From assembly GCA_032718475.1 (NCBI GenBank), contig JAUCBJ010007180.1, positions 18,159-82,158 on the forward strand: 64,000 nucleotides of DNA, in the 5' to 3' direction. The notes beneath the pieces were generated by a model. That model ran no database searches. It was not told the DNA's origin and saw only the letters and a list, made by a program, of their open reading frames with translations. The DNA is from Nemertoderma westbladi. Taxonomy: Eukaryota; Animalia; Xenacoelomorpha. Below are positions 1 through 42,342 of this stretch, one piece after another (position 1 is the stretch's first letter; each line of letters opens with the position of its first letter). The position numbers and the translations under genes were made by a program.

Positions 1-3000
1 TTTTGTCGCCGTGAAAGGGGTATGACTGAGGCAAAAATAATTAATTTGTGAAAATATGGATGCGTTTCAGTGTCTTGGACCAGTACGCGCTAATCCTCGA
101 CAGTCAGCTGGACAGGGAATTAGCCAAGCCTATCTATAATGCACCAATAACCTAAAATAATCGCACCATCAACTCTGTTACCACCTAGCCCAAAACAGAA
201 GTCAGACCACAGAACACAGGAACACCATAGGCCTATGGTAAGTAAATATGTTACCAATGGGAAACTGGTGGAATGCTAGGGCACACACACAGTACAAAAT
301 TTAAATAAGATTTTATGATTTGCAGTAATGTCGGAATTCTGCTCCACTTTCATAAGATGATAATTGATGTTAACGACATACTGACTAACAGGGGGTTGGT
401 ATGTATATATTAAATTAAATTAAAGGAAGAACAGGAGTCTTACACCCCCAATAAAAATATAGAATCAGTACATTTAGCCCAAAATATTTCTCGACCCCTA
501 GGGTCATCGAAGAACAACAAACACACAAACACAAAACAAATATAAATACATGCTAAACATACAGGTATGTGTCGCAACCCTAACCCTAAGCCTACCCGCC
601 ATGCACTAAATGATACCGTTAATAAACTGCACAATAGCTAAGCCTATATTATATAAGAAAATATATGACAATTTTGTCGCCGTGAAAGGGGTATGACTGA
701 GGCAAAAATAATTAATTTGTGAAAATATGGTTGCGTTTCAGTGTCTTGGACCAGTACGCGCTAATCCTCGACACCTCGACAGCTGGACAGGGAATTAGCC
801 AAGCCTATCTAAATGCACCAATGACCTAAAATAATCGCACCATCAACTCTGTTACCACCTAGCCCAAAACAGAAGTCAGACCACAGAACACAGGAACCCC
901 ATAGGCCTATGGTAAGTAAATATGTTACCAATGGGAAACTGGTGGAATGCTAGGGCACACACACAGTACAAAATTTAAATAAGATTTTATGATTTGCAGT
1001 AATGTCGGAATTCTGCTCCACTTTCATAAGATGATAATTGATGTTAACGACATACTGACTAACAGGGGGTTGGTATGTATATATTAAATTAAATTAAAGG
1101 AAGAACAGGAGTCTTACACCCCCAATAAAAATATAGAATCAGTACATTTAGCCCAAAATATTTCTCGACCCCTAGGGTCATCGAAGAACAACAAACACAC
1201 AAACACAAAACAAATATAAATACATGCTAAACATACAGGTATGTGTCGCAACCCTAACCCTAAGCCTACCCGCCATGCACTAAATGATACCGTTAATAAA
1301 CTGCACAATAGCTAAGCCTATATTATATAAGAAAATATATGACAATTTTGTCGCCGTGAAAGGGGTATGACTGAGGCAAAAATAATTAATTTGTGAAAAT
1401 ATGGATGCGTTTCAGTGTCTTGGACCAGTACGCGCTAATCCTCAACACCTCGTCAGCTGGACAGGGAATTAGCCAAGCCTATCTATAATGCACCAATAAC
1501 CTAAAATAATCGCACCATCAACTCTGTTACCACCTAGCCCAAAACAGAAGTCAGACCACAGAACACAGGAACCCCATAGGCCTATGGTAAGTAAATATGT
1601 TACCAATGGGAAACTGGTGGAATGCTAGGGCACACACACAGTACAAAATTTAAATAAGATTTTATGATTTGCAGTAATGTCGGAATTCTGCTCCACTTTC
1701 ATAAGATGATAATTGATGTTAACGACATACTGACTAACAGGGGGTTGGTATGTATATATTAAATTAAATTAAAGGAAGAACAGGAGTCTTACACCCCCAA
1801 TAAAAATATAGAATCAGGACATTTAGCCCAAAATATTTCTCGACCCCTAGGGTCATTGAAGAACAACAAACACACAAACACAAAACAAATATAAATACAT
1901 GCTAAACATACAGGTATGTGTCGCAACCCTAACCCTAAGCCTACCCGCCATGCACTAAATGATACCGTTAATAAACTGCACAATAGCTAAGCCTATATTA
2001 TATAAGAAAATATATGACAATTTTGTCGCCGTGAAAGGGGTATGACTGAGGCAAAAATAATTAATTTGTGAAAATATGGTTGCGTTTCAGTGTCTTGGAC
2101 CAGTACGCGCTAATCCTCGACACCTCGTCAGCTGGACAGGGAATTAGCCAAGCCTATCTATAATGCACCAATGACCTAAAATAATCGCACCATCAACTCT
2201 GTTACCACCTAGCCCAAAACAGAAGTCAGACCACAGAACACAGGAACCCCATAGGCCTATGGTAAGTAAATATGTTACCAATGGGAAACTGGTGGAATGC
2301 TAGGGCACACACACAGTACAAAATTTAAATAAGATTTTATGATTTGCAGTAATGTCGGAATTCTGCTCCACTTTCATAAGATGATAATTGATGTTAACAA
2401 CATACTGACTAACAGGGGGTTGGTATGTATATATTAAATTAAATTAAAGGAAGAACAGGAGTCTTACACCCCCAATAAAAATATAGAATCAGGACATTTA
2501 GCCCAAAATATTTCTCGACCCCTAGGGTCATCGAAGAACAACAAACACACAAACACAAAACAAATATAAATACATGCTAAACATACAGGTATGTGTCGCA
2601 ACCCTAACCCTAAGCCTACCCGCCATGCACTAAATGATACCGTTAATAAACTGCACAATAGCTAAGCCTATATTATATAAGAAAATATATGACAATTTTG
2701 TCGCCGTGAAAGGGGTATGACTGAGGCAAAAATAATTAATTTGTGAAAATATGGTTGCGTTTCAGTGTCTTGGACCAGTACGCGCTAATCCTTGACACCT
2801 CGTCAGCTGGACAGGGAATTAGCCAAGCCTATCTATAATGCACCAATGACCTAAAATAATCGCACCATCAACTCTGTTACCACCTAGCCCAAAACAGAAG
2901 TCAGACCACAGAACACAGGAACCCCATAGGCCTATGGTAAGTAAATATGTTACCAATGGGAAACTGGTGGAATGCTAGGGCACACACACAGTACAAAATT

Positions 3001-3015
3001 TAAATAAGATTTTAT
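1..3015. repeat. Tandem array of ~675-bp units (~4.5 copies, open at the left edge)
   Basis: Unit start TTTTGTCGCCGTGAAAGGGG recurs at 1, 672, 1346, 2021 and 2696. Copies differ by a few substitutions and indels. The array ends abruptly at ...AAGATTTTAT 3015. Confidence 0.97.
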
Positions 3016-3262
3016 ATACAGCTGTGATTGGCTGCTAAATATTTGACATCACTACGCAGTGCTCCAATAATTTCTTATATTGTTTTCTATGCCATTAATA
3101 TATACATTTAATCTCAATCATTTCACACGCCCGTATATCAATTGAAAGCGGAGAATCTTGCGCGTCTTTTTACACCACAATTAATTAAATTCATGATGAC
3201 GAACATTGATTAAATTAATCAATTCACAATTATAAACTTGCAGATTGCCTGGCCTTGTATGC

Positions 3263-15179: not shown

Positions 15180-15526
15180 AGAGTCCCACAAAAAATGAAA
15201 ACAAATAAGTTGGTGCCAGTTCCCAAGAAGGGCAACCTAACACTATGGTTCTTTTCGGGGAATCTCATTGATCTCGATTGCTGCAAAGCTGTACAATAGA
15301 ATCCTATTAAATCGCACCAGGGATCCCATTGAGAGACTGCTCCGTGGAAATCAGAATGGGTTCCGTAAAGGTCGTGGGACCATGGAGCCCATTTGGGCAC
15401 TTAGAAGGATAATTGAAGAGTTATCAAAAAAGAAAGACAGGCATCTGGCTGTTATCTTAGTTGACTTTTTCAAGGCCTATGATTCAGTCTCTCGCTCACG
15501 TATGTTCAGCATACTTTTATTATATG
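15180..15526 (+). pseudogene. RTE-type LINE RT, 5' part (interrupted by element A)
   Basis: LVPVPKKG...RGISLISIAAKLYNRILLNR...QNGFRKGR...VDFFKAYDSVSR...LLLY; the frame resumes as YGIP at 50961. Confidence 0.9.
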
Positions 15527-16672
15527 TGTAAAGGCTTTTGCGTAATTAGCCGGTTATTTTCCCTGTAAAGTACTCTGTAGTTGGTTTAACAGGCATAAAA
15601 GGCCGTGTCCTTACTGTATTGTTGTTTTAGAGGACATAAAAGTAATTTCTTCTGTATGTGTACTTTAGCGGACATAATCCGCAATTTTATGACGCAATAA
15701 GCCGGATCCTCTTGAAACAGTGTAGCTACCATGACGACGGCTAACAGCTGATATTGCCATGTAGAACATCTCTTTGTTCTTTGTTCTCTCTTTGATCGAT
15801 CGACCAATCAGAGCGTTTTTTGCCTCTGTGTTAGATGGTAGATAAAAACTCTTGGAGTTGAGTCAGTATGTGATTTTTCCACAGCCTACAACACCGGCGT
15901 GGAACCTCCGTGTTTCAGTCTTTAGTTCAACATTAGTAGGCTTAATTATAGAACGTATATCCGTTATCAAACCAACTAACTTACTCACTGATCATATCAA
16001 TTCTTAACATTACTGCTTTGCTGTCGGTTATTCATTATATTTGTTGATGTAACATTATATTTGGAATACTGATAAACAATCAGACACCCCAATCTTCTTG
16101 ATATACTAAAGGTTAGAGAGACCGGATACATATAACGATTGCGACTTACATTAAGTGGTTTGAAGTGAATCTAATGCTATTTTATAGGCCCTACACGTAT
16201 TGTCTGTTGTTCTCCTTATATGTGACTAAAATTAGTGAAGGTCGGCAGATTAGTGTGCAGCATTGTGCAGTATTGTGTATGATTGTGATTGATAACGAAG
16301 CATCTCCTAAAGAATGCGCCATATACGTGAATCTATAGCCATCCCGTTGTGTCTGGTTTAAGTCATAACTCTGTTTATATATTTAAAGCGCCACGTCCTA
16401 AAGGAACTGTTAATATTTCCCGAAAGTGAATAATATTTGTCAGAGATTATATATACTAAGATCAGTCGAATAATACAGTAGGCCTATCCCGCAATACGAT
16501 TAGGCTTCCGAATCCAGTCTCCCGGGTATATCCAGCGGGTGAATGATCGCGCATAGACTGGTTTCGGCTAATGTAGTGTATCAAATATTTGTCGTAGGCT
16601 AAAGACTATCTATTATCTAGAAGACATCCTAATTTGGCAGGTTAAACTGCTAAAGGTCTGAAAGCGCGAACA
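15527..16672 (+). repeat. 5' LTR of element A (1146 bp)
   Basis: TGTAAAGG...GCGCGAACA. By eye it differs from 49815-50959 by 4 substitutions and a 1-bp indel. CCAAT box at ~15803 and TCAGT initiator-like motifs at ~15863 and ~15915. Confidence 0.97.
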
Positions 16673-16685
16673 ATAACAGATATAC
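16673..16685 (+). promoter_or_regulatory. Non-canonical primer-binding position of element A
   Basis: ATAACAGATATAC directly follows the LTR, with no TGG. It is 12/13 complementary to LTR bases 15955-15967 (GTATATCCGTTAT). Confidence 0.55.
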
Positions 16686-17017
16686 CGTCTAATTGCAGGG
16701 TAGGCAATAAATACAGTTTAATATTGTTCTGGTAAGAACAATAACAGACAAAGCTTCTGTATTGCACTGGGCAATAAAGCTGAAGTACCGGCAACCGGTA
16801 CCCAGTAGGCCTGACTACCTAACCACCCGGACCGGTACCTACAGCAGTACAGGTACAGCAGTATTATTCGATTTTGATAATTATATACCAGTAGGCCTTA
16901 ATATTTAATCAGGGACTGCAGCCCTGGTTTTTTATTGAGATTTTACTTATTTCTGTCAGATTTATTTACTTGTAGGTTAATATTGAGCAGAAGGCGTGTA
17001 AGCCTGCTCAGATTGTA

Positions 17018-17598
17018 CAGATAATTTGTAGGCTTGACTGTTGTCTAACTGTTGTTAAGTCTGAACGGATTGCAGTGTGTGTAGAGCATCTGTCCGATAA
17101 AGTGCTAGTTAGGAACGTAGGGGCTTCAAGTGCTGTGAGGTAAACCCCCTTTGAAAGAATAAGTCGTACTACTAGGTTAGAACGCATACTAACTAATCAT
17201 TTCGGAGTCTGCATATACTGTAGTTTATTTAGGCTTGATAGTAGTCTGCCATCGTTTGGTCTGTACTTTGTTTGTGTAGTCTGTACAGGTAGCGTATAAT
17301 TCTTATTTAGATAATTTGTAGGCTGGATAGTTGTCTGGCTGTTGTTAGGTCTGAGGAAATTTCGGTGTGTGTAGAGTGTATGTCCGATAAAGTGCCAGTT
17401 GGGAACGTAGGGGCTTCCAGTGCTGTGAGGTAAACCCCCTCTGAAAGAATAAGTCGTACTACTAGGTTAGAACGCATACTAACTAACCATTTCGGAGTCT
17501 GCATATACCGTAGTTTGTTTGGGCTTGATAGTAGTCTGTCAGTGTTTGGTCTGCATTTTGTTTGAGTAGTCTGTACGCGTAGCGTAATATTTATTATT
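17018..17598. repeat. ~290-bp tandem duplication in the 5' leader of A
   Basis: AGATAATTTGTAGGCT... begins at ~17019 and ~17309. The same duplication is present in B at ~34630-35210. Confidence 0.9.
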
Positions 17599-18529
17599 CA
17601 GAGTTTATGCGATTATTCGCAACATTCATTCCCCAAGTTTATTCCTACAGTAATTGTGCTTGTTATATATACCGTTACAGTTAAACTAACCCCGGTACTA
17701 CATCAGGGCTGCTTGGCGTAGGTAAAGACTGGAGATTTTATGCTTTGGTCACTCCGGCAGATACCGTGGTTCTTTTAGCTGTTCAAGTATTTTTAACTAC
17801 TGATTATTTGTTGTACAAGTACTTGTACCTAATTTAGGGTTTAGTGTACAGTGCTTTCCGAAGGTAATTAGCGTGTAGGCAGTATATTTGTGTTGTTAAT
17901 AGGCACATTGGTTCTGGTAGACCGCAGTAATTAACTTCTGGGTAGGAACACTCCGTGATACATAACGTAGTACTTATAGCGATACGGCTATAAGTCGTCA
18001 GACGGTGGTATTTTCCTATCTGGACAACGCAATATATTTACTACTGCTTGTTATTTTCAAATACCGTAGTACCCTGTCCGTTGTAATAACCAGATATTCT
18101 AACCCTTTGTTAGGCTGGTTTGTAGACTTCTTGTAAAATTACCCTAAAAAATTCGTACTTGTAAATTTTGTGTTTATTTAGAGATTGTAATTTCACCCGA
18201 ATTGTACGTAATTTGTAGTATTAAGTAACTTAGGTAAATTAGAATTATTTGTTTTAGTGTCCAACAAGTAGCACTCCACTGAGAGCGCACAGCTTCTGTG
18301 TAGTGACTCCCCCCAGAAATAATAACATTTATTTCAAATATTGACAAAACCCATTTTAACGGGTATATATATATTATAAATCAACTCAAACGATTTATAA
18401 ATAGTAGGCCTGCCATACATCAATTAGGTCTAAATATCAGTTGGACTACTGCTTAAATAGCGGTAATAAAGTAAGTTAAAGTAACCAAGTAACCCCTGAA
18501 ATTTCAGAAATTCAATTATTCTAAAATAA

Positions 18530-18790
18530 TTGACATACCGGTATTTACAATAGGCTTATTATATTTATTTCTATAAATTTAGGCTGAAATTATACCGGTA
18601 TTCTGTAATTAATTCTAGTTAATAATTATACTTATATATACTATAAGTGTAAACTGCATACCGGTATCCACGATAGGCCTATTATATATTTATATATATT
18701 TGTGCTGGAATTATACCGGTATTCTGTGACAAACCTAGTCTGTAATAATACTTATATATATACTATAAGCATACCGGTATTCTAATATAT
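18530..18790. repeat. ~123-bp degenerate repeats built on the ATACCGGTAT palindrome, just upstream of gag
   Basis: ATACCGGTAT occurs five times at ~55-65-bp spacing; homologous region in B at ~33420-33700. Confidence 0.75.
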
Positions 18791-18916
18791 TATATATATA
18801 TCACGCTACACTGAGTAGCAGTATCGGTAATTAATTATTAGGCTAACAGTGATACTGAATTACTAGACTTGCTTAAACTGTAATATAGCAGTAGGCATTC
18901 AACTGTACAAACCAAC

Positions 18917-21451
18917 ATGTCTGACACAAAGCAAAACCTGTCAGACAGTCTCCTAGATACAACCATATGTGACCCAGACAGGAGTGTGGAACGAGTAGGA
19001 CCGAAGTTCAAATCACCTCCTACTGTAAGAAAGATCATCCCTCCCGTAGTAATATCAGACCCTAGGCTAGTCCAACATCGTAGGTCTATCATAGGCACTC
19101 GAGCTCAGGTCAAGCGGGACCAAGAAGCAGCAGAACAGCAACAACCCGTGAGCCAAGAACTTATTTCTCAGCGGCCCGACAGCTCCAGTAGTGAGGATAC
19201 TGTAGAGCTGACACCCGAGCGCGGAGCAAAGATGATGATGCGGTTTATTCGGATCCCCTTCTCATTCTTCCTGCATCCGTACTCACTAGTTTATTGACTG
19301 CGGTGGAAGAACACCAGATTGATTGGGCGAGAAATAAGCGATCGACTAAAGATAGTTATGCGGGATATACAAGGGAAGAACTGAAGTCTATTGTCGAGTC
19401 GCAATGGAACTTCCCCGGACCCGGACTCCCGTTTGATTTATCAGAAGCTGCCTGGGAAGACATACACAGGATGGGAGTAACCAAAGAAACCATCGATCCA
19501 GCTGTGTGGAAGAGGTCCGCAGCAGGATACGTACAGGGATTCTTCAGCTCCATGGAACGATTAAAAGAACAACTGTTTCAACAACCCCAAGGACCTCAAG
19601 AGCAGGGACAACTGCTTTATCAAGTTAGAGAAAGAATTCTACGAATCAGGCTAATCTTATCGGCCTTTGAGGAAGCTTCTAAAAGAAGACAAGACACGTC
19701 GTTGCAAGTTGCCGTAAAGACTTGGTTTCAACAGGTGAGTCTCCAGGTTCAAGGAACAGCTCAGTGGAAAGCTCAGCTAGATGAGCGCTCAACCCATGGA
19801 GAATCAACAGACGCTACTTTTTCCCAAGTGGAAAGTGAAGCGACGGCAGAGAAACCGCATAAGAGGGATGCCATTGACATCTATCTGTCAGACTATCAAC
19901 GTTTTTTAGGTGATGAAGAGTTGAGGAGAAGGTTAGATGGACTTAGCCCTAATAGTGAAGGAGCCCAGCGTGTGTTGGACGCCATCGATGTGGATATGAG
20001 AGCTGCGAACCAAGCTAGATTTGATGAACGCCTCCGCATCACTAGAGTCCAAGAGGAACAAGTAAAGAAAAAACGTATAGAAGACAGAAAGACAGCAGCA
20101 GTGGCAGCAGCAGTAGCAGCGGCAGAAGCGGAAAGAAAAGCGGCAGCGGCAGCAGCAGCGGCAGAGGTAGAAGCGGAAAGAAAGGCGATAGAAGTGGAAA
20201 GAAAGGCGGTAGAAGTGGAAAGAAAGGCGGCAGTGGCAGCGGCAGAGGCAGTGGCAGAAACAGAAGGGAGAGCGGCTGAAGAAACCACCCAATTAGAATT
20301 GGAAAACATTCAGGAGAATCAAGACTGCATAAATAAACAGTTAACAGCTAGTAATATGCAGATGATGAATCGATCTACTCCCAAAAGACAGGGATATACA
20401 TCATCTGAGGAAGGCGATACCACCGATACTGAAGGCAAAGGAAATAGATCTCGTCTAAGCAGACGTAGAAGAACATCCCACCGTCAGAAATTGCCTGATT
20501 TGCCTCCAGCGGTTAGAAGGCAACTAAATAACACAAACTTAGGTAGTACAGAACCCACAGACCAAATAATTAAAATAGAAAGACTCCCTACTATAGTAGA
20601 TGAGCCTGAAATAATTAGGCCTGTTCCCGAAGCCACCCTTTCGGTGGTAGAGACACCTGTACTCCCTGAACCTACCCCTAAATTCCCTCTGCACAGCACT
20701 AAGCTACCTGTGCCCAGCAGAACAGCCCATGAGACAATCCATGTTCTGGACTCCGAGCGAAATATTAATGATTTGTCGCCCGTTGTCCCTCGTCCGCCCG
20801 CTACAACGTTGGCGGCTCCCGCTTCGGCGGTCGAGTGGGTGGATGAGAGATGACGGGGGATGGATCTCCTGCTCGGGCAGATGCAGGAGACCATTCAGCA
20901 ATTCAAGGGCACAGTAAGGGAAAGTAGGTTAGAGTTGCAAGAAGTGCAGCAAAGTATCGCGTTAGAACGCGATAAATTAGTAAATACACAAAAGGGTATA
21001 CCACCACCCCCGGTAACAATGTGTCAACCTGTTAGGTCTGAAGTATCTCATGCGCAAGGTGTGGAGCCTACACGCATATATACTGCTAGCGAAGTAGAAA
21101 CTCCTATAGTGAACCCTATTAAAGGTAATTATAGACCTGTTGATAATGATATTCCCTATAGACCTGATCATAATCCGAGAAATTTATATACCGATAACTC
21201 GATATTAAATAACACGATGGCCCAAGAAAGTTTTACGCGTCAAATGGCTAGAACCGAAGCCCGGCAAGCGGTAAAGGTGGGAGAGATAGTCAAGTTCAAT
21301 GGAGATGAGATGAAATGGTTACCTTTTAATGAATATTACAAAGATAACATACAGAACTCTGTGCTATCTAATGGAGAGAAACTTAGATTCCTCATCGAGT
21401 GCTTGGAAGGATCTCCCAAGCTAATGGCGTTAAAGTTTATTGGACATCCAG
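18917..21451 (+). pseudogene. gag: Element A gag-pol, N-terminal part
   Basis: ATG 18917 (MSDTKQNLSD, same as B). Frameshift at ~19235, TGA at 20851. Coiled-coil Ala/Glu region, then BEL gag DUF1759-like KFNGDEMKWLPF. Cut by B at ...FIGHP. Confidence 0.93.
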
Positions 21452-22663
21452 TGTACGCGCTTTTGAAGACCTTTAGCAGTTTAACCTGCCAAAATTTATA
21501 TGTCTTTTGGTTTATAAATAGACTTTAGCATATGACAAGTATTTAATACCAATAAACACAACATTAGCCGAAGCCAGCCTAGTGCGCGTCCATTCACCCG
21601 CTGGATATACCCGGGAGACTGGATTCGGAGGGCTTAGATTGTTATTGCAGTGTAAGCTTACTGTATTATTCGATTGATCGTTAATAAATAATTTCTGACG
21701 AGTATTATTCACTTTCGGGAAATATTAACAGTTCCTTTAGGACGTGGCGCTCTATCTAGGTAAACAGAGATATGACTTATACTAAACACAACTGTAAGAC
21801 TGTAAGGCTTATGATTCACGTATGAGGCGCATTCTTTAGGAAATGCTTAGTTATCAGCCACAATCATGCACACTACCGGTAACGCACGATACTGCACACT
21901 AATCTGCCGACCGTCAATGAATTTTATCATATATAAAGAGAACAGCAATTGACTCATGTAGTGCCTATCAAATAGCATTAAACTCACTACAAACCACGAT
22001 AATATAAGTCGCAATCGCTATATGTAACCTGTCTCTCTAACCTGTAGTGTATCAAGAAAATTGGAAAATTTGGGTTATTTATCGATGTTCTCCAAGTAAT
22101 AATATTCAACCAAACAACAGTAAAACCATTAAGACGGTAGGTTAAGATATGATATGACAATGTACCGATAATGTAACAATGATACGATCTGCCGATCCGA
22201 TTGGGTTGATTGAGTTGTTAAGGTTGATAACAGTTATACGTTCTATAATCTAAGCCTACTAATGTTTCTTCTAAAGTCTGAAACGAATTGACTCCAGAGC
22301 CGGTGTTCTTGGCCTAGATAGAAACAACAAAACTATAACACAGAAAACTATAAGACTGAACACTCCTAGCACGATCTGTAGAATATCTCCACATCGACAG
22401 TAAAAATCGCCCTGATTGGCTGTTAAGCTAAACAAAGAACCATGTGTCCAATGGCCGTTTCCATGCCAGCAACCAGCTGTTAGATGTCGTAATCTGAATC
22501 ATCAAGGCTACACTGTGCTAGAGTATTTGACGCATTCCGGGTTTTGTGCCTTGCCATGTCCGACAAAGCACACATATAGAAGAATGACTTTTATGTCCGT
22601 TAAAACACCTACAACGGTACTTTGCGGGCAATGGAACTGATTATATCCGCAAAAGCTTTTACA
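21452..22663 (-). repeat. 3' LTR of element B (1212 bp)
   Basis: Matches 35575-36765 except ~9 substitutions and a 21-bp indel. Preceded on the minus strand by PPT-like TGGGAGCGG (22664-22672). Confidence 0.97.
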
Positions 22664-22741
22664 CCGCTCCCAGAAAATGGGATTCAAGTCTATAATTATA
22701 CAAAAATCACAGTTTCTAATATACGTAAATACTCTAAACAG

Positions 22742-23723
22742 TTAGTCTTTCTTGCGCGGACGGCGTTTACGCAGTTTTTTAAAGCTGACCAGAGTCTTTT
22801 TCTCTTTGGGGCGAGCCACTTTACAAGGAGGGCTATAACTCCTGGGTGAAGGGTGCAATATGATTGCATCAGAGGGTGTAGGATTATGGTCGGTGTATCC
22901 GCCAGTCGAAGTGCCGGGTTGATTGACATCAACGTCGGGGGAGAGTGGTCTAACGGTCTTGAGAGCGCGTTTTAGGACGGCCGCTCTTACGGGTCCTTTA
23001 CGAGTGGTCTGAACGAGAGCCGTGGGTGGACCATAGGCAGTCAGAAACTTCCTGGGTTTAATGGTTCTTTCCAACTCGCGCTCACGGGCTCGGTATTCGT
23101 AAGGCCGTCGATATACTTCCTGTAACTCGGGGTGTGAGTCAACAAATAAGTCTCCATAGTCCGGATCCTGACGGATATAATTGATTAAGTTATAGGAATG
23201 AAGGTCGCTAGGATTAACACTCCTGAGAAATTTGCGTACGAACTTGGTTGAAATACATTCTCCGACGCGCTTCAGTAGTTCGTAACTCGATATGCGGGAT
23301 TTCTGTTTGACAGAAGCGAATAGATAAGGATGGAACGCATAAACTCCTTCGTAAGCGTGTCCAGGATAATATATTTTTCGTGTTCTATTCTCAGTTTATC
23401 GTTACGACTCCGCTGGGTATGATATTTAAATAGAACCATTTCCCTTTCGGTGTCTACATCGTCAGTATCATGCAAGTCGATAGGATGGCCGGTAGTTAAG
23501 AAGTCCATATACGTACCATTACGATGCGTATAGCGAGTGGTGAATTTTCGATAGTCCAATTCACGCGTAAGTTGCTCTTGGGACATCGGCGGTTCGATAT
23601 AACGACCATCGTCCTCCGTAATGGTTGGATCGGCTTCACTGCGTATCAAGCTATCCACAAATGCTTGTAAAGGTAAGTATATCGCTCCCTGATACCAAGA
23701 TCATCTTCTATCAACTCCGTCAT
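22742..23723 (-). pseudogene. Element B accessory ORF region, internally deleted (~2 kb): ORF3a joined to the ORF3b C-terminus
   Basis: ATG 23723 (MTELIEDDLGIRE, then a 1-bp frameshift) is homologous to 46768-47115. At ~23375 it jumps to sequence homologous to A ~49100-49727, ending KKLRKRRPRKKD. Confidence 0.88.
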
Positions 23724-25345: not shown

Positions 25346-28300
25346 TCACGTTGGGGAGTCCCTAGATGTTTGAGGAATTAGGGAGGTGGTCGTGGGAAGA
25401 GTGTCTTGCCTTCCATAGTTTCCGGAGAGTTCTCTGTCTCTTTCCAGTAAACATAAACGACCAACTGGGCGGTTGAGTTGTTGCGTCTCAAAGATTATGC
25501 CTGGCTTCTTGAAGTTACGCCGCATGACGACGAGTTCTACCGAGCGTACTAAACCATCATCCGAGATGTGAGTCTCGATGATACGACCTGTCTGCCACCG
25601 TTTACGTGGAAGGTCTGAATCTACAATAAGCACCATATCTCCGGCGCTGACGTTTTCTTGCTGCGCAAACCACTTAGTTCGAAGTTGTAGCGTGGTCAGA
25701 TAATGTTTCTCGAAATGGTCAGCGAAACGACGGGATAGCAACTGCATAAGTTGCCAAGTTCGACGGCAGTATTCGTCTCCGTCGGTAATCTCCGATCGTG
25801 GGAGCATGGCTACAGGTTTCTTAAGTAGGAAGTGCGCGGGTGTTAGCGCTTCCAGGGAATCGGGACTCGATGAGACTGGCATAAGCGGTCTCTCGTTGAG
25901 ATAGGCAGCTATTTCCTCCATTAATGTCCGCAAAAGTTCGTCGGTGAGATACGCGCGGCATGGCACTATAAAGTGAAATGCGGTCTTGACACTTCTAATT
26001 AATCTCTCCCAACTTCCTCCCCACCAAGGGGCGTCGGCGGCGTTGAAGGTCCAGCTAGACGCTGTTATCCTTAGCTGATCGTCCACCTGTCTTTGGTTCC
26101 AGTCCTTCACATAAGCCTGGATTTCGTTGTTGGCACCAATGAAGTTCGTTCCCTTATCCGATCTCATGGTATTACTAGTCCCGAAGCGAGCAATCTGTCG
26201 GCGTAAACTTAATACGAAGCTGTTGGTAGATAGATCGTTCACCATATCGAGATGGATGGCTCTACAAGTCATGCATACGAAGATGACACACCATCTCTGG
26301 ACTATAGTCCTAGCACGATATACTTCAATAGGGCCAAATAAATCTACACCAGTATTAGTAAAAGGTGGTTCATAGAAGCTTACTCGTTCCCTAGGTAATT
26401 CTGCCTCTCGCTGTGTTAAAGGCCTACTGAATGCTTTCCTACAGGGTATGCAGTTCCTAAGAACTTGGTTCAGAGCTCTACGGGGTTTATCAAAATAATA
26501 GCGAGTTCGAATTTCGCTAAGAACTCGTTCTCTACCAGCATGATAAAGTTTACTGTGAACATCTACAATCATCTTGATTTGTACTTAAAGATTTCTAATG
26601 AGTATGGGGAATTTAGTGTCAAATGATAATGGCGCATTGGTGAGCCTTCCTCCAACACGTATTAACCCATCTATCATTGTGCTAGAGAAGCGATCCCTTA
26701 AGCGCATCTGCGGATTTCTCAACAACAGGAAATACTTATCGGATTCCTCATAGCATTGCAGGAGTCTCAGTATCTGCTTATTGGTTTCTTCATGCTCCTG
26801 GTAACTGATTTTTTCCTTTAGAAACTGGTCGGATGTCTTATATTTGGGTAAATTTTTAATAACATGAACTTGCGCAGATGTCAATGGAGCGGTATCACTA
26901 ATGGTCTTCGTCCTGGAGTAGTGATGATGAAAACATCGCCTTAAATATGTGACGGCTTTACAGAGCCGATTCCAGGAACTGTAGTGATGCATTGCTCTCT
27001 GCAGCAGGGGTGAGATTCCTTGCGAGACGTCTGGTGTTCCAGATTTCCAATCTCTATCTCTAATTTCCACAACAGACTTATTTGTGGCGAGGGATTGTGG
27101 ATCCGAAGCATCGTTTCCGGAAGTATGCAATACAGATAGATCGATCGTCGGTTTAAATAACTTCGATTTACTCGCCCGGGTTTTAGGTTTGACTTTCTCC
27201 GCTCCCTTGGCTTGTCTAATCTCCGCCGTAGTAAGGTGAGGAGGCCATTCATCCTCTTCCTTACTCAGGAAGTCGGGTCCACCCAACCAGTCTGGAGTAT
27301 CTATCAGCTCCTGTGGAGTCGCTCCCCTGGAGGCAATATCGGCTGGATTAATCGTACCAGGGCAATGTCTCCATTGATCTATCTTTGTGCGACTAAGAAT
27401 AATAGCTACTCTGTTAGTAACAAAAACGCTGAACTGACAGACTTCATTGGTTATATACTCCAACACGAGTAAAGCGTCGGTCCAATAAACAGTTTTCTCC
27501 AGTGGATAGTCGATTTGTTCTGTTACGTTCTGGCCGATGGCTGTAGCGTATAAAGCCGCTTTTAACTCCGCTCGAGGAACCTTTAACTTGTTGTTAACTC
27601 GCAGATATGCTACTATACCTATTCCCATGTCGCTGGCGTCTCCAAACACATGGAGTTGATAGGAATAAGTAGGGAGAACATGACCAAAATATGCACGGGA
27701 AATTATAAAGCTCTCAATGGCAGGTAGAGAATCTTCCCATTTCATCCACTTCTTTAACAGTTCTCCCTTAAGTGGATCGTCCCATGAGTGGTTTTCAAGC
27801 CGCATTTGTTGTACTAAACTCCGAGCAATCAATATAACTGGGCTAATAAATCCCAATGGGTCGAAATAAGTGCTCAGGATACTTAAACAAATCCGCTTGG
27901 TCTGAACTGGATTATCTCGCTGCTTTAGCTGAAAAAACAGGATATCTCTTTCTGTGTCCCACTTCAAGCCAAGCGTCTTGGTTTCTGGAAGATTGTCCTT
28001 TATTAAGTCTAGGTCTTTCGTTCCTCGGTCTTCTACCGGTATCGCTTCCAGAAACTCACGGGAGTTGCTGGTGAATTTCGTCAGTCGAAATCCACCTCTT
28101 TTCAAACACTCTACCGTTCCTTTCGCGACATCAATGGCTTCTTCTACTGATGGAAGGGACTTTAAATTGTCGTCCATGTATATATCGCGCTTGATGTTGT
28201 CTATCACCTCTTTGGAGAATGCGTCTCGGTTGTCATTCGCAGTGGTCCGCACCACGGAGCAGGCATTGGAAGGGCTTGATATGATCCCAAAAGCCTGGAT

Positions 28301-31300
28301 GGTCATCCAGTACTCTACCGGTTTCTGGTTGAGATCTCCTTCAGGCCACCACAGAAATCTCAGGCTGTCTCTATCTCTATCCAGCGCCTTGACTTGTAAG
28401 AACATTCCTTCTATATCGGAGGCGAACGCGATGGAATATTGTCTTAATCTTAAAAGTATTCCCAACAAAGATTGGAGTAAGTTGGGTCCTGGTAACAACT
28501 CGGAATTGAGGGATTGGCCCATATATAGAGCGGAGCCATCGAATACGACTCGTACTTCATGGGGTTTACCGGGTTTGGGAACGTAATGATGTGTTAAGTA
28601 ATACGTTCTCTCAGTCACTGGTGTTCCTTCCGGTACTCGCTCCGCGTATCCCTTTGTAATAAATTTCTTCAACTGAGTTTGGTACATTTCTTTAGCTGAA
28701 GCATTAGCCGTAAGGCGTCGATGTAATTGAGTGATTCTTTTCTCTGCCAAGGGTCTGTTATTTATAAATCTAGGTTCTCGTTTTCGAAATGGTAGGCCGA
28801 TTTCATATCTACCTTGATCTTTTAAAAAACGTGTAGTTGTTTCCTGGATTTGCTTGGCTCTTTCTTCTTCTATCGATAGGGCCTTATCGTATGAATTGGG
28901 CTCTACCAATTCTTTAGTAAAGAATCGTACGGCGAGTTCGTCCCGAGTTCTAGCGTTGTAGCGCTCTATCTCATCATTTAGTTCGTCATTGTAATCAATG
29001 GGTCCCGATGGGCGAATCAGTTGACATAGGTTCACCTGGTTTTTCCAAGTTTTGTTTTCTGTAAGTAGGTCGATTGTGTTCTCTTCATCGAAGAGTTGGT
29101 AGATGTCGTCATTATCTGAGGAGTATGGTGTTCCCTCAGTTAGTTCGTCCACCTCACTGCTCTCCACTTCCCAATCGTTTACTTGGTATATTCGTTCTTG
29201 TGGCATTCTCTCTTCGAGAGTTCTGCGGGAAGGGCCAGTAAAGTACCAACCTACTCTAGTTCTTACCGCATAGGTTTGCAGTGGCTGCGGTTGAGCAGGC
29301 CGTTTCTCCAATGTCTCGAGCGCCTCATGCGCGTTTTGGCCGATGAGTATTTGCACTCCAGGATAATCTGTCTGGAATCGAGGTATCTTAAGCTGTTGGA
29401 TGCTCTCATCCTCGTCCCAATTATAAAGTTCTGCTTGGGTAGTAGCGAAGTTCTTTATAGCCACCATTTTTACCGACCTTATACCTTGTGCTCCTAATTT
29501 ATCCTGGGGGGTGGACAACACACCTACATAGTAATCTGCCATTAGGGTAGATTTCCAAACCTGCATAATTCCTGACATATTCAATTTAGTCTGGAATTTG
29601 GGTTGTCCAGCAAAGATATCTTCGGCTAGTTCTTGATCGATGAATGTTCCTGTGCTGCCGGAGTCAAGGAGGGCATTCACTATGTAACTTTTGTTAGGAC
29701 CATGAACTCTTACCTGCACTACAGGAAATTCTCTGATTCCTACGTTGGAAGTTGGAGCTTTCCAAGATGGTTGTCTGGCAAAAGTAGTTGGGGGGAACTC
29801 AGTGTCGGTGTCCTTTTCATAAGTAAGTGCTCGATACACTGCGGTATTTATTAGGTAACAGGATTCGTTGGCGTCGGAGAATTCGTCAGTATAGAATCCT
29901 TCCATCTCAGACTCTTGATCAGTGTCATTTACATCACTGAATTGGACATGTAGTTCGGGCTCACTTACCTGACTCGGGTTGTCTCGTTCGAACTCACTGT
30001 GTAACAAGATGTGATGTTTCGCGCCACACTTTGCACACTTTACGTCGGAGTAACAGGTTCGCCGTTGGTGTCCTGATCTGAGGCAATTATAGCATAACCG
30101 CTTATCCCACATGACTGCACGTCTGTCTACAAGGGATTTCTTTAGAAATTCAGCACACGCACTCAAACGGTGGGGCCCGTCGCACAGCGCACAGTTTGGT
30201 TTGATGTTACTCACTTTACCTTGGGTAACGTGATGCACTCTCGTTCTTTCTTCGGGCTTTCTTCCGTGCATTCTGTTAGGAGACTGAGGAGGAGTCTTAG
30301 CAACCTGTTCTCTCCTATCTTTGGTTCGAGCCTTGTATTTACTTACGTCCTTTGAGGTTTTGTTAACGTAGTAAAATCGGTCAGTGTCTTTCCCGCTGTC
30401 CTCTTCTTGAGAAGCTTGGCTTTCGCCGTCGTCAGTGTAACATACTGGTGTTACTCTTCTCCTAGAAACGGGTTTCTCACTTACCTTATTTTCCGATGTT
30501 TTCTCTCTGGACTGCTTGATGAGTTATAGTTTTACTTCACCATCTAAGAAGGACATGAGATCAGCCATGGTAGGGCTTCGTTGTTGCTGCTCATTCATAT
30601 ACAACACTTTCTTGTCCCAACGCGTACATACTCCACCCTTTGGTAAAGTAGAGACTACTGCTCCAATAACCATGGAACTCTGATATTCATGAGACTTACC
30701 TAACCAGTCCAATTGTCTACAGATCTCCTGAATCTCATCGGAAAACTCTATAATCCCGCTACTAAGGAAGTTTCTGGGGGCTACTAATTTTGCATACAAA
30801 TACTTAGCTATGTTATCCTTGTTACCATACCTGATGTTTAATGTATCCCAAACTTGTCTTAATCCATCTGGATGTCCAATAAACTTTAACGCCATTAACT
30901 TGGGAGGTCCTTCCAAGCATTTGATGAGGAATCTAAGTTTCTCTCCGTTAGATAGTACAGAGTTCTGTATGCTATCTTTGTAATATTCATTAAAAGGTAA
31001 CCATTTCATCTCATCTCCATTGAATTTGACGATTTCTCCCACTTTGACCGCTTGGCGGGCTTCTGTTCTAGCCATCTGACGCGTAAAGCTTTCTTGGGCC
31101 ATCGTGTTATTTAATATCGAATTATCGGTATATAAATTTCCCGGATTATTATCAGGTCTATAGGGAATATCATTAACAACAGGTTTATAATCACCCTTAA
31201 TAGGGTTTGCTATAGGAGTTTCTACTTCACTAGCAGTATAGATGCGTGTAGGCTCCACACCTTGCGCATGTAATACTTCAGACCTAACAGGTTGACACAA

Positions 31301-33343
31301 TGTGACAGGGGGTATTGGTATACCCTTTTGTTTATTGACTAATTTGTCGCGTTCCAGCGCGATACTTTGCTGCACTTCTTGCAATTCTAACCTACTTTCC
31401 CTTACTGTTCCCTTAAATTGGTGGACAGTCTCCTGCATCTGTCCGAGCAGGAGATTCATCCCCCGCCGTCCCTCCTCTACCCACTCGACCGCCGAAGCGG
31501 GAGTCGCCAACATTGTAGCGGGCCGACGCGGGACGACGGGAGACAAATCTTTGATTTCTCTCTCAGTGTCCAGGACAGGGATATTCGCATGGACTGTTCT
31601 ACCGGGTACAGGCAGTGTAGTACTGTATAGAGGGAATTTAGAGTTAAGCTTTGGAAGTACAGGGGTCTCTAGCACAGGAGTGGCTTTGGGAACGACAGGC
31701 CTAATTATTTCAGGCTCATCAACTATAGTAGGGAGTCTTTTGACCTTAATAATTTGGTCTGTGGGTTCTGTACTACCTAAGTCTGTGCTAGCTAGTTGTC
31801 TTCTAACCGCTGGGGGCAAATCAGGCAATTTGTGACGGTGAGATGTTTTTCTACGCCTGCTTAGACGAGATCTATTTCCTCCGCCTTCAGGATTGGTGTT
31901 CTCGCCTTCCTCCGATGATGTGTATCCTTGGCGCTTGGGAGTAGATCGACTCATCATCTGCATTTGACTAGCAGTTAACTGTTTATTTATGCAGTCTTGC
32001 GTCTCTTGAAGATTTTCCAACTCCAGTTGGGTGGTCTCTTCCGACGCTCTCTGTTCTGCTTCTGCCAATGCCATTGCTGCTGCTGCTTTTGCTGCTTCTA
32101 CTGCCACTGCCGCTGCCGCTTTTGCCTCTTCCACTGCCGCTGCCGCCTTTGCTGCTGCTATTGCCTTTCTGTCCTCTATACGTTTTTTCTTTACTTGTTC
32201 TTCTTGGACTCTAGCGAGGCGGAGTTTTTCATCAAATTTAGCTTTGTTGGCAGCTAACATTTCCACATCGATTGAGTCCAACACAAGCTTGGCTCCTTCA
32301 CTATTGGGGCGAAGTCCAGCCTGTCGTCTCCTCAACTCTTCATCACCTAGGAAGCGTTGATAGTCTGACAGATAGATGTCTATGGCGTCTCTCGTCCGTG
32401 GTCTCTCTGCGGTCACTTCGCTTTCCACTTGAGAAAAGGTGGCATCGGTTGATTCTTCATAGGTTGGTCGCTCAGCCAGCTGGGATTTCCACTGGGCCGT
32501 TTCTTGTACTTTGAGACCTACCCGCTGGAACCAAGTCTTGACGGCAACTTGCAGCGACGTGTCCTGTCTTCTTTTGGAAGTTTCCTCAAAGGCTGATAGG
32601 ATTAGTCTAATGCGTAGGGTTCTTTCGCGTACTTGATATAGCAGCTCTTCCTGCTCTTGAGGTCATTGGGGTTGTCGAAACAGTTGTTCTTCTAATCGCT
32701 CTAAGGAGCCGAAGAATCCCTGCACATATCCTGCTGCCGACCTCTTCCAAACAGCTGGATCCATCGTATCTTTAGCCACTCCCATCCTGTGTATGTCTTC
32801 CCAAGTAGCTTCGGACAAATCTAACGGGAGTCCGGGTCCGGGAAAGTTCCATTGTGACTCGACAATAGACATCAATTCTTCCCTGGCGTATCCCGCATAA
32901 CTATCTTGGGTCGCTCGCTTACTTCTCGCCCAATCGACTTGGTGTTCCTCCACCGCAATGAATATAGTTGTTAATACTGCGGCAGGAAGGGTGAGAAGGG
33001 GATCCGAGTAGGCTGTAGCCGCCATCTGTACTCCGCGTTCGGGGGTCAGCTCTACAGTATCCGAACTACTGGAGCTATCGGGTCGCTGGGAACAAGTTTC
33101 TTGACTAGGATGTTGCTGCTGTTGGACAGCTGCTTCCTGGTTCTGTTTGACTTGGGCCCGAGTGCCGATGATTGACCTACGGTGTTGGATTAGCCTAGGG
33201 TCTGATACTACTACTGGAGGGATGACCTTTCTTTCAGTAGGAGGTGAGCTGAACCCCTTTCTTAATCGCTCCACACTCCTATCTGTGTCACAGATGGTTG
33301 TATCGATTAGACTGTCTGACAGGTTTTGCTTAGTGTCAGACAT
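25346..33343 (-). pseudogene. gag-pol: Element B single-frame gag-pol (~2660 codons) with 3 premature stops
   Basis: Gag knuckles CALCDGPHRLSAC, CYNCLRSGHQRRTC, CAKCGAKHHILLH. Protease LLDSGS; RT YMDD; RNase H FGDAS, RAEL, WTDA, NPADIASRG; integrase HHCC, GVDLFGP, SDKGTNF, GSWERL. Stops at 32663, 30524 and 26585. A 17-aa in-frame deletion in RNase H relative to A. Confidence 0.96.
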
Positions 33344-35384
33344 GCTTAGCTATACAGTTGAATGCTTACTGCTATAGTTACAGTTAAAGCAAGTCTAGTA
33401 ATTCAGTATGACCGTTGGCCTAGTACCGGTAATTTATTACAGTATATTAGAATACCGGTATACACTTATAATATATATAAGTATTGTAAACTAGGTTTGT
33501 CTCAGAATAACGGTATATAATTTTAACACAAATATATATAAATATATAATAGGCCTATCGTGAATACTGGTATACAGCCTACACTTATAGTATATAAGTA
33601 TAATTCTGGACTAGAATTAATTACAGAATACCGGTATAATTTCAGCCTAAATTTATAGAAATAAAGATAATAGGTCTATCGTAAATACCGATATATCAAT
33701 TATTTAAATAATTGAATTTCTGAATTTTAAAGGTTACTTAGTTACTTTAACTTACTTTACTACCGTTATTTAAGCAGTAGTCCAACTGATATTGAGACCT
33801 AGTTGTTGTATGGCAGGCCTACTATTTATAAATCGTTTGAGTTGATTTATAATATATATATACCCGTTTAAAATGGGTTTTGTCAATATTTGAAATAAAT
33901 GTTACTATTTCTGGGGGAGTCACTACACAGAAGCGGTGCGCTCTCAGTGAAGTGCTACTTATTGGACACTAAAACAGATAATTCTAATTTACCTAAGTTA
34001 CTTAATACTACAAATTACTTACGATACGGGTGAGATTAATTCTCTAATTAAACACAACAAAAATATTACGTACGAAATTTTAGGGTAATTTTACAGGAAG
34101 TCTACAAACCAGCCTAACAAAGGGTTAGAATTCTGGTTATTACAACGGACAGGGTACTACGGTATTTGAAAATAATAAGTAGTAGTAAATATATTGCGCT
34201 GTCCAGATAGGAAAATACCACCGTCTGACGACCTATAGCCGTATCGCTATAGGTACTACGTTATGTATCACGGAGTGTTCCTACCTGGAAGTTAATTACC
34301 GCGGACTACCAGATCCAACGTGCCTATTAACCACTTTACAACACAATACACTGCCTACACACTAATTACTTTCGGAAAGCACTGTACACTAAACCCTAAA
34401 TTAGGTACAAGTACTTATTAAAACAGATAACCAGCAGTTAAATATACTTGAACAATTAAAAGAACCACGGCATCTGCTGGAGTGACCGGAGCACAAAGTC
34501 ACCAGTCTTTACCTACGCCAAGCAGCCCGTGTAGTACCGGGGTTAATTTAACTATAACGGTATGTGTAACAAGCACAATTACTGTAGGAATAAACTTGGG
34601 GACATGAATGTTGCGAATAATCGTATAAACTCTGAATAATAAATATTACGCTACCCATACAGAATACTCAAACAAAATACAAAACAAACGCTGGCAGACT
34701 ACCACTAAGCCTAAATAAACTACAGTATGTGCAGATCCCAAAATGGTTAGTTAGTATGCGTTCTAACACGGTAGTACGACTTATTCTTTAGGAGGGGGTT
34801 GACCTTACAGCTCTGGATGCCCCAACTTACTAACTGGCACTTTATCAGACAAACTCTACACACGCAGCAATCTCTTCAGACCTAATAATAGCTAGACAAC
34901 AATCCAGCCTACAAAATATCTGAGTAATAACTATTACGGTACCTGAACAGACCACACAAACAAACACAGGCTAAAACGCTGGCAGACTACCACCAAGCCT
35001 AAATAAACTACAGTATGTGCAGATTCCAAAATGGTTAGTTAGTATGCGTTCTAACACGGTAGTACGACTTATTCTTTAAGAGGGGATTGACCTTACAACT
35101 CAAGATGCCCCAACTTACTAACTGGCACTTTATCGGACAGACTCTACACACGCCGCAATCTCTCCAGACCCAACAACAGTCAGACAACAGTCCAGCCTAC
35201 AATTATCTGAACAATCTGAGCAGACTTACACGTCTTCAGCTCAATATTAACTTACATGTAAATAAAACCGACAGAAATAAGTAAAATCTCAATAAAAAAC
35301 CAGGGCTGCAGTCCCTGATTAAATACTAAGACCTACCGGTATACAATAATCAAAATCGAACAATACTAATGTACTTATACTGGA

Positions 35385-35510
35385 AGTACCGGTTCAGGCA
35401 GTTAGGCCTACGGACCTACAGCAGTACCGGTTCTGGCAGTTGGGCCTACGGACCTACAGCAGTACCGGTTCTGGCAGTTGGGCCTACGGACCTACAGCAG
35501 TACTGGTTCA
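35385..35510. repeat. 38-bp minisatellite (~3 copies) in the leader of B
   Basis: CAGTACCGGTTCTGGCAGTTGGGCCTACGGACCTACAG in tandem; only a single degenerate equivalent in A. Confidence 0.88.
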
Positions 35511-35563
35511 GGTTTACCGGTCGACCGGTACTTTCAACTTTATTGCTTACTGCAATAAAGACA

Positions 35564-35574
35564 ATAACTGTTAT
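35564..35574 (-). promoter_or_regulatory. Non-canonical primer-binding position of element B
   Basis: Element-strand ATAACAGTTAT follows the LTR directly and is 11/11 complementary to element-strand ATAACTGTTAT at 36329-36339 in the LTR. Confidence 0.55.
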
Positions 35575-39700: not shown

Positions 39701-42342
39701 ACCGAAAGAGATATCCTGTTTTTCCAACTAAAACAGCGAGATAATCCAGTTCGGACTAAACGGATTTGTTTAAGTATCCTGAGCACTTATTTCGATCCAT
39801 TGGGATTTATTAGCCCAGTTATATTGATTGCTCAGAGTTTAGTACAACAAATGTGGCTTGAAAACCACTCATGGGACGATCCACTTAAGGGAGAGTTGTT
39901 AAAGAAGTGGATGAAATGGGAAGATTCTCTACCAGCCATCGAGAACTTTATAATTTCCCGTTCATATTTTGGTCATGTTCTCCCTACGTATTCCTATCAA
40001 CTCCATGTGTTTGGAGACGCCAGCGATATGGGAATAGGTATAGTAGCCTACCTAAGGGTGGAAACTCCGGACGGAATCAAAGTCGCCTTGGTTACTTCTA
40101 AGGCATTGATAAACAATCAGTTGAAAGTTCCTCGAGCGGAGTTAAAAGCGGCTCTATACGCTACAGCCATCGGCCGGAATGTAACAGAACAGATCGACTA
40201 TCCACTGGAGAAAACTGTCTATTGGACCGACGCTTTACTCGTGTTGGAGTATATAACCAAAGAAGTCTGTCAGTTCAGCGTCTTCGTTACCAACAGAGTA
40301 GCCATTATACTCAGTCGCACAACGATGGATCAATGGAGACATTGCTCCGGAACGATTAATCCAGCAGACATCGCCTCCAGGGGAGCAACTCCACAAGAAC
40401 TGGTAGACACTCCAGACTGGTTAGGTGGACCCGACTTCCTCTACAAAGAAGAAGAAGAATGGCCTCCTCATCTTACTACAGCAGAGATTAGACAGGCCAA
40501 GGGAGCGGAGAAAGTCAAACCTAAAACTCGGGCGAGTAAATCGAAGTTATTCAAACCCATGGTAGATCTGTCTGTACTACATATTTCCGGAGACAACGCT
40601 TTGGATCAGAAACCCACAGCCACAAATAAACTTGTTGTGGAAATCCGTGAGAAGGATTGGAAATCTGGAATACCAGACGTCTCGCAAGGACTCTCACCTC
40701 TTCTGCAGAGAGCGATACATCACTACAGTTCCTGGAATCGGCTCTGTAAGGCCGTTACATATTTAAAGAGATGTTTTCACCATCACTACTCCGGGATGAA
40801 GGCCAAAGGTGATACCGCTCCAATAACATCAGTGCAGGTCCATGTTATTAAAGATCTTCCCAAATATAAGATACCCGACAGGTTTCTGAAGGAGAAGATC
40901 AGTTATCAGGAGCATGAAGAAACCAACAAGCAGATGCTGAGACTCCTGCAATGCTATGAAGATTCCGATAAGTATTTCCTGTTGTTGAGAAATCCACAGA
41001 TGCGCTTAAGGGATCGTTTCTCTAGCACAATGATAGATGGGTTGATACGTGTTGGAGGAAGATTAACGAATGCTCCATTATCCTTTGACACTAAGTTCCC
41101 CATACTCATTAGAAATCTTGAAATACAAGTCAAGATGATTGTAGATGTTCACAGCAAACTTTATCATGCTGGTAGGGAATGAGTTCTTAGCGAAATTCGA
41201 ACTCGCTATTATTTTTATAAACCCCGTAGAGCTCTGAACCAAGTTCTTAGGAACTGTATACCCTGTAGGAAAGCATTCAGTAGGCCTTTAACACAGCGAG
41301 AGGCAGAATTACCTAGGGAACGAGTAAGCTTCTATGAACCACCCTTTACTAATACCGGTGTGGATTTATTTGGCCCTATTGAAGTATATCGTGCTAGGAC
41401 TATAGTCAAGAGATGGTGTGTAATCTTTGTTTGTATGACTTGTAGAGCTATCCATCTCGATATGGTGAACGATTTATCGACCAACAGCTTCCTATTAAGC
41501 TTACGACGACAGATCGCTCGCTTTGGCACTAGTAACACGATGAGATCTGATAAGGGAACTAACTTCATTGGTGCCAACAATGAAATCAAAGCTTACGTCA
41601 AAGATTGGAACCAAAGACAGGTGGACGATCAGCTACGAGTAACAGCGTCTAGCTGGACCTTCAATGCCGCCGACGCCCCTTGGTGGGGAGGAAGTTGGGA
41701 GAGATTAATAAGAAGTGTGAAGACAGCATTTCACTTTATAGTGCCTTGCCGCGCTTATCTCACCGACGAACTTTTGCGGACGTTAATGGAGGAAATCGCC
41801 GCCTATCTCAACGAGAGACCGCTTATGCCAGTCTCATCGAGTCCCGATTCCCTGGAAGCGCTAACACCCGCGCACTTCCTACTGAAGAAACCTGTAGCCA
41901 TGCTACCACAATCGGAAATCACAGACGGAGACGAATACTGCCGGCAAACTTGGCAACTCATGCAGTTGTTATCCCGTCGTTTCGCTGACCATTTCGAAAA
42001 ACATTATCTGCCCACGCTACAACTTCGAACTAAGTGGTTTGCTTAGCAAGAAAACGTCAGCGCTGGAGACATGGTTCTTATTGTGGATGTAGATCTTCCA
42101 CGTAAGCGGTGGCAGACAGGTCGTATCATCGAGACTCACATCTCGGATGACGGTTTGGTGTGATCGGTAGAACTCGTCGTCATGCGACGTAACTTCAAGA
42201 AACCGGGAATTGTCTTCGAGACGCAGCAGCTCAATCGCCCAGTTGGTCGCTTATGTTTACTGGAAAGAGACAGAGAACTCTCCGGAAACTATGGGAGGCA
42301 AGATACTCTTCCCACGACCACCTCCCTAATCCAACAAACATC
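36766..42342 (+). pseudogene. gag-pol: Element A gag-pol, remainder (Gag knuckles, PR, RT, RNase H, IN)
   Basis: Same motifs as B. Frameshift at ~37450, a 32-bp tandem duplication at ~38583-38646, and stops at 41180, 42044 and 42161. Confidence 0.96.

Follow-up and report, generated by a model that had tools for sequence, protein, structure and literature searches.

Self-primed reverse transcription has been shown for the long terminal repeat (LTR) retrotransposon Tf1 and proposed for Tj1, Tcn1, sushi elements, and the TAR lineage of copia elements, according to the accessible text of four papers (PMC4600332, PMC5341516, PMC7175516, PMC6317226). In Tf1, the RNA's first 11 bases pair with its primer-binding site (PBS); the cut by RNase H falls between bases 11 and 12 (accessible parts of PMC7175516, PMC4600332, and PMC5341516). 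For the TAR (Houba, Osr-1) Ty1/copia and Tcn1 lineages of plants, self-priming was predicted from complementarity between LTR and PBS, which suggests that the mechanism arose more than once (accessible part of PMC6317226). Elements of the Belpaoviridae/Semotivirus group (BEL/Pao) are described by the ICTV as tRNA-primed, with an 18-nt PBS for tRNA-Arg or tRNA-Gly and a length of 4.2 to 10 kb (PMC8742986).

We found no report of self-priming in BEL/Pao elements in full-text literature searches. Subscription journals, Repbase Reports, GyDB pages, and supplements lay outside the search and may contain an earlier mention. The accessible text of PMC3286476, PMC3601003, PMC5443660, PMC8220671, PMC11042837, and PMC6317226 held no BEL/Pao case. 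A look-up of the terms “PBS” and “tRNA” found neither in the main text of a BEL/Pao survey (PMC3118150) or of the Sinbad paper (PMC554778).

The DNA analyzed here is a 64,000-nt window of contig JAUCBJ010007180.1 from the Nemertoderma westbladi assembly GCA_032718475.1, and all positions are given in window numbering. Self-comparison and mapping of open reading frames (ORFs) revealed two related LTR elements, one of which (B; 15,314 nt, minus strand) is nested within the gag region of the other (A; 20,114 nt without B, plus strand). The 5′ LTR of A (15527-16672, +; 1146 nt, TG...CA) is 99.6% identical to the 3′ LTR (49815-50959, +), and the target duplication is the 5-bp sequence ATATG. The 5′ part of A gag (19195-21451, +) is interrupted by the B insertion, the 3′ gag-pol part (36771-42046, +) carries frameshifts and one stop, and a purine-rich tract (49807-49814, +) adjoins the 3′ LTR. 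Element B has a 5′ LTR of 1191 nt (36765-35575, −), a 3′ LTR of 1212 nt (22663-21452, −) adjoined by a purine-rich tract (22664-22671, −), a 5-bp target duplication (TCCAG), and a gag-pol frame (25346-33349, −) with three in-frame stops. Thus, the coding copies of both elements are disrupted by stops or frameshifts. The two LTRs of A differ by 4 substitutions and one 1-nt gap, whereas those of B differ by 9 substitutions and one 21-nt gap. Although B is nested in A, its LTRs are the more divergent, a difference that is within chance for such counts.

As judged by their proteins, A and B are BEL/Pao elements (Belpaoviridae). Both encode DUF1759, a YMDD reverse transcriptase (RT), PF05380, an H2C2 integrase domain, and DUF5641, and their pol frames include an RNase H region with acidic motifs. 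The Pfam order is PF03564, PF05380, PF17921, PF18701, with the integrase after RT-RNase H, and the same domain set is present in 444 homologues, the best of which share 38-43% identity. The elements resemble the ICTV description in their DUF1759 Gag, PR-RT-RH-IN order, PF05380, DUF5641, TG...CA LTRs (1.15-1.2 kb), 5-bp target duplications, and polypurine tracts; LTRs of the group measure 0.2-1.2 kb. They differ from it by the absence of a tRNA-type PBS, by their lengths of 15.3 and 20.1 kb, and by an extra 3′ ORF.

This additional sense ORF of 596 codons lies before the 3′ LTR of A (47937-49727, +), is partly retained in B (22742-23395, −), and holds Cys/His clusters. It matched no Pfam family and no homologue; Atlas matches scored below 0.9, and only weak zinc-knuckle look-alikes were seen. 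Both leaders exceed 2 kb (16673-19200 in A, 33350-35574 in B), contain a 290-nt tandem duplication, and carry AATAAA within a predicted hairpin about 25-35 nt past the LTR. The leader of A also holds a degenerate second copy of the LTR end, PBS start, and hairpin (16736-16780, +), which is skipped by the contigs described below. A segment of about 2.8 kb in A (42345-45125), including a tandem pair of 460-470 nt (43499-44677), is missing from B. Elsewhere in the window, positions 1-3136 form a 675-nt tandem repeat. Its minus strand carries a CTGACGA...GAAA word that resembles a hammerhead core, at positions 2806, 2131, and 1456; Rfam gave no match at the gathering score. Adjacent ORFs at 59099-62711 encode a protease domain of the Ulp1 type and an RT of the non-LTR type.

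Neither 5′ LTR is followed by TGG at offsets 0-5 (the first 40 post-LTR bases were examined), and so the 18-nt PBS of the ICTV description, complementary to a tRNA-Arg or tRNA-Gly 3′ end, is absent from both elements. The original prediction had noted this absence and had proposed that the post-LTR bases pair instead with a homologous position inside the LTR. When re-derived, both the coordinates and the extent of this pairing were the same. The putative PBS of A (16673-16683, +) directly follows the terminal CA and faces an 11-nt predicted self-primer at 15957-15967 (+), with pairing extendable to 15955. Over 13 nt (16673-16685 versus 15955-15967), 12 positions are paired (10 of the first 11), with an A:C mismatch at 15962. 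The putative PBS of B, likewise composed of the first post-LTR bases (35574-35564, −), pairs at all 11 positions with its predicted self-primer (36339-36329, −). The A and B sites occupy the same LTR alignment columns and are identical in both LTRs of each element (3′ copies at 50245-50255 in A and 22227-22237 in B). In both elements, pairing begins at the base next to the terminal CA, as had been claimed.

The chance of such pairing was estimated from 2000 dinucleotide shuffles of the LTR, with pairing anchored at the first post-LTR base. The exact 11-mer of B was reached in 1 of the 2000 shuffles, or in 59 if one mismatch was allowed. The 13-nt match of A with one mismatch was reached in 7, but its exact pairing spans only 5 nt, a length attained in 1872 shuffles. 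Among 359 alternative anchors in the leader, none matched the value for B and two matched that for A. Less stringent scoring weighted to include G-U pairs is weaker evidence (5/500 shuffles for A, 21/500 for B). If only Watson–Crick pairs are counted while free offsets and splicing are allowed, 125 of 300 shuffles equal A and 5 of 300 equal B.

Claimed covariation of the two sites was upheld only in part by the window. One pair between site and PBS is indeed changed on both sides between A and B, but covariation is limited to this single position, and the LTR of B fits the PBS of A equally well by count (12/13; −6.2 kcal/mol versus −5.8 for A’s own LTR). The LTR of A pairs poorly with the PBS of B (−2.4 kcal/mol versus −10.1 for B’s own). 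Moreover, CpG decay could produce each side of the middle-position C/T-G/A change independently. Because A and B share ancestry, they do not constitute two independent events, and the window by itself amounts to roughly one event plus one compensatory change, with modest statistics. The caveats attached to the prediction, namely a short AT-rich match, a near-palindrome in B, and a mismatch in A, still stand.

Several other candidates were considered for these LTRs. A splice-built primer within A or B was rejected: spliced matches reach at best 8 and 10 nt, use poor donors, and do not outperform the contiguous site. Words resembling group I or hammerhead motifs in the LTR, judged by eye, are not kept between A and B. 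Rfam yielded nothing at the gathering score in the window and one chance match within 15400-19200, and no tRNA was found in the 64 kb.

The predicted primer of A lies within a conserved LTR island (15929-15968, +) that stops one base past the primer. Identity between A and B is 38/40 in the island, versus 25-29/40 in four flanking windows. We surveyed the wider family in contigs from four sequencing runs (X1, X3, X4, X5), which are uninformative on RNA start, end, or strand; X4 carries a different organism label and is RNA by guess only. The family is very abundant, with 10,244 contigs aligned in X1. In that run, depth in the bin containing the site reaches 265,389, versus 45,000 and 8,096 in the adjacent bins, and the same profile is seen in X3 and X5. 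Depth in X1 drops from 118,892 to 829 inside nine bases past 15968, and loose contig ends at 15968-15975 diverge into G-poor sequence (X1, X3, X5). This conservation boundary supports a priming role for the site.

Some sequence variation is visible among the family contigs. Loose ends carry the B type of site in X3 and the A type in X4, and a variant that pairs at the mismatched position of A occurs in X1 and X5, all unphased with the PBS. Three X1 contigs depart from the leader of A after PBS position 11 or 12, giving the break point and the letters of one variant. One X1 contig has two PBS changes that keep pairing with the window sites via G-U, and it also spells TGG at offset 4. The exact LTR motif had no match in viral or metagenome contigs, and an RT profile search of viral contigs also returned none. 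Conservation between A and B is 80-90% across the long 3′ half of the LTR (16090-16672 and its B counterpart), which includes several predicted helices along with invariant stretches of roughly 38 and 49 nt.

Distant relatives at 38-45% RT identity provide a broader view. An RT alignment led to 80 metagenome loci. A direct repeat flanks the RT in 26 of them, and the LTR end could be fixed from two copies in 13 (for L045 via its family member L063); repeat contigs from metagenomes may be mosaics of copies. Another 17 loci were scanned with a free LTR end, and the rest were left unscored. Plain complementarity searches gave weak results. When both contiguous and GT-AG-spliced LTR matches were sought at PBS offsets 0-5, 12 of the 13 relatives proved to carry a 10-13 nt complement between their own LTR and PBS, in different letters, each equaled by only 0-5 of 300 shuffled PBSs. 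The complement is contiguous in three (L032, L037, L040) and appears only after removal of a GT-AG LTR intron in nine (L004, L006, L019, L033, L039, L045, L049, L063, L080). The remaining relative, L034, is of the tRNA type with TGG. With related loci counted once, 9 of 10 PBS types are complementary to their own LTR.

The introns themselves add to this pattern. All nine winning introns have GTAAG or GTACG donors though the search required just GT, while 28 of 475 GT sites are donor-like. Predicted LTR introns of the relatives measure 66-426 nt, with GTAAG, GTGAG, GTACG, or GTATG donors and pyrimidine-rich YAG acceptors. Among the 17 loci with a free LTR end, 10 give matches of 10-15 nt, one contiguous and nine with canonical donors (L002, L018, L021, L028, L031, L041, L053, L067, L076; the L021 match is its second best). 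Nothing convincing emerged from the other seven, several of which have no upstream LTR part. Unrelated LTR/PBS pairs reached 10 nt in 8 of 198 cases. Antisense LTRs gave 10-11 nt in 4 of 15, reversed LTRs in 0 of 15, and a downstream segment in 1 of 15; the antisense result indicates that any single match of 10-11 nt can be due to chance.

The relatives also differ from A and B. Their primers end in AC facing GT in 11 of 12 cases, versus AT facing AT in A and B, and the distance from site to LTR end is 86-216 nt, versus 705-754 nt in A and B. A FastTree analysis of the RT (79 of the 80 loci plus 23 proteins, midpoint root, no outgroup, no named superfamily references) places A and B on a long branch among metagenome loci and proteins from marine invertebrates and one fish, with weak deep supports. 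In this tree, L034 and L052, whose TGG-type PBS begins five bases past the LTR, are nested among self-complementary loci, a position that reflects either reversion or poor resolution of the tree.

Folding predictions agree in part with pairing in cis. For a B RNA that begins at the site, a single-sequence fold closes the whole R-U5 domain with the 11-bp duplex at a probability of about 0.8, whereas starts located 40 nt or more upstream, and likewise a start at LTR position 300, lose the duplex. The PBS of B can also form a local 7-bp hairpin. In A alone, the duplex never forms in a single-sequence fold (probability 0.00). An RNAalifold consensus of A and B from the site closes R-U5 with a site-PBS helix of 10 pairs, one of which is changed on both sides; overall, 5 of 167 predicted pairs are so changed, with two sequences only. 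The consensus also includes a predicted 6-bp U5 helix (16547-16552 with 16664-16669, +; alignment columns 649-654 with 778-783) that ends three bases before the PBS and has one compensatory pair between A and B. Downstream of the PBS, a 5-bp hairpin is predicted in A (16692-16708, +) and a 9-bp hairpin in B (35538-35560, −), with different loops. Judging by the title of one paper, Tf1 reportedly requires helices in U5 and in the leader beside its PBS.

Signals for RNA ends near the site point in two directions. The first hexamer past the site of A that resembles a poly(A) signal is GATAAA (16071-16076, +), a weak and noncanonical word that is aligned in B and is the only such hexamer in the two elements, at +104 and +144. 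A poly(A)-like hexamer follows the site by 12-98 nt in 11 of 12 relatives, and none occurs within the 60 nt upstream of the site in A, B, or the 12 relatives. We therefore rejected the primer end as a poly(A) site, and the downstream position of the hexamers makes it likely that the site is in R. On the other hand, the site is preceded, at a distance of 6 nt, by a word similar to TATAGAA and is followed immediately by TCA, which resembles an initiator. Hence the RNA start could be downstream of the site, contrary to a model of priming in cis.

Given these findings, we consider it likely that A and B prime reverse transcription with their own transcript in the manner of Tf1, rather than with a tRNA. 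This reading is based on the lack of TGG, pairing from the first post-LTR base, the compensatory pair, the conservation edge, and the same design in relatives. Contrary to it, A alone gives no signal in the strict test (125/300), and A and B differ from the relatives in primer end, site distance, and a long-branch RT of weak placement. If all modes of LTR-derived priming are taken together, as the original prediction also allowed, an origin of the primer in the LTR is highly probable, and both the family-wide conservation edge and the relatives favor it.

A likely series of events is as follows. Transcription would start at or upstream of the site, placing it in R, and folding of R-U5 (about 700-750 nt) would bring the site to the PBS. 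The element’s RNase H could then cleave where the duplex ends on its 3′ side, before a conserved C, as in Tf1, and the freed 3′-OH would be extended into the terminal CA of the LTR. The 3′ copy of R would serve to restore what lies upstream of the cut, and such restoration might allow relatives to retain an LTR intron while using a spliced primer, from which an intron-less form could arise. A primer located at the RNA start would leave spliced relatives with a first exon of 4-7 nt, which makes an unpaired 5′ tail plausible. In Tf1, the primer is said, in a paper title, to stay on the cDNA and be copied. If this also holds for A and B, changes in the site would be written into the PBS, yielding covariation without separate selection.

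The comparison with Tf1/Tf2 of Schizosaccharomyces pombe, Tj1, and other Tf1/sushi chromoviruses (Ty3/gypsy, Metaviridae) is one of shared design. A and B have in common with them a PBS that adjoins the LTR and is complementary to about 11 nt of it, but their proteins are Pao-type rather than chromovirus Pol, and the elements are not members of that group. The site-to-PBS distance exceeds 700 nt, unlike in Tf1, and the first 11 RNA bases pair in Tf1, whereas the predicted primer of A and B is an LTR site that would lie at or downstream of the RNA start. In addition, the primer is intron-split in most relatives of A and B, a feature unmentioned for Tf1 in the accessible text of the papers. The TAR and Tcn1 cases involve the same reasoning from LTR-PBS complementarity, but in other superfamilies and other hosts.

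A less probable arrangement, which we rate as unlikely, is that the primer, though LTR-derived, works in trans or originates at some other RNA end instead of being cut from the same genomic RNA. Candidate sources are LTR transcripts that are short or spliced, small RNAs made from solo LTRs, and R in its 3′ copy. The same complementarity would suffice, the copy number of the family is very high (10,244 contigs in X1), the primer of relatives is internal to the spliced RNA, and the AATAAA just past the PBS in both leaders could yield short RNAs. However, the duplex is predicted to close a folded R-U5 domain in cis, and the site end is not a poly(A) cut, given that the poly(A)-like signal follows the site. 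We give distinctly less credence to a primer supplied by the host, either a tRNA fragment or some other small RNA, with the LTR match serving as a structural helix or as a switch that hides the PBS. Half-tRNA priming does occur in copia lineages (accessible part of PMC6317226), the X1 contig described above has TGG at PBS offset 4, and TGG lies 5 nt past the LTR in L034 and L052, two loci of the same tree. A host primer would be expected to keep the PBS fixed, as expected for the half-tRNA type (copia Osser, Bianca), with a PBS for a host tRNA half that is constant across the family. Instead, A and B have different PBSs, and so do the relatives, with 10 PBS types that track their own LTR in 9 of 10, which counts against a host primer. 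Furthermore, the end of the helix, 0-4 nt from CA, coincides with the position required of a primer 3′ end.

It is very improbable, by a hair more so than a host primer, that the match in A and B is due to chance or is a DNA-level feature with no priming role, such as an AT-rich near-palindrome or an LTR-end duplicate of a promoter or factor site. The match is short and AT-rich, near-palindromic in B, mismatched in A, and of one shared origin, and the island could be a core promoter. In A, however, the inverted match (10/11) exceeds the direct match (7/11). Chance at the anchored position in B is 1/2000, the island stops one base past the site, and the same geometry recurs in 12 of 13 relatives. 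This explanation would also leave the elements without a primer.

Within the self-priming interpretation, A and B would represent an intron-less form of a wider group whose primer is often joined by splicing of an LTR intron. We lean slightly toward the broader proposal that a large BEL/Pao group, kin of marine-invertebrate elements, mainly self-primes, that in most members the spliceosome joins two LTR exons into the primer, and that A and B belong to a giant intron-less lineage whose primer and PBS underwent a joint change at the priming base. If true, BEL/Pao would be the third LTR superfamily in which self-priming arose, here using an unrelated RNase H and possibly in a splicing-dependent form. 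It would account for BEL/Pao elements that have no recognizable PBS, and it would correct annotation tools that demand a tRNA match. The same model would also specify the exact bases at which an RNA start, a cut, and a primer are to be sought.
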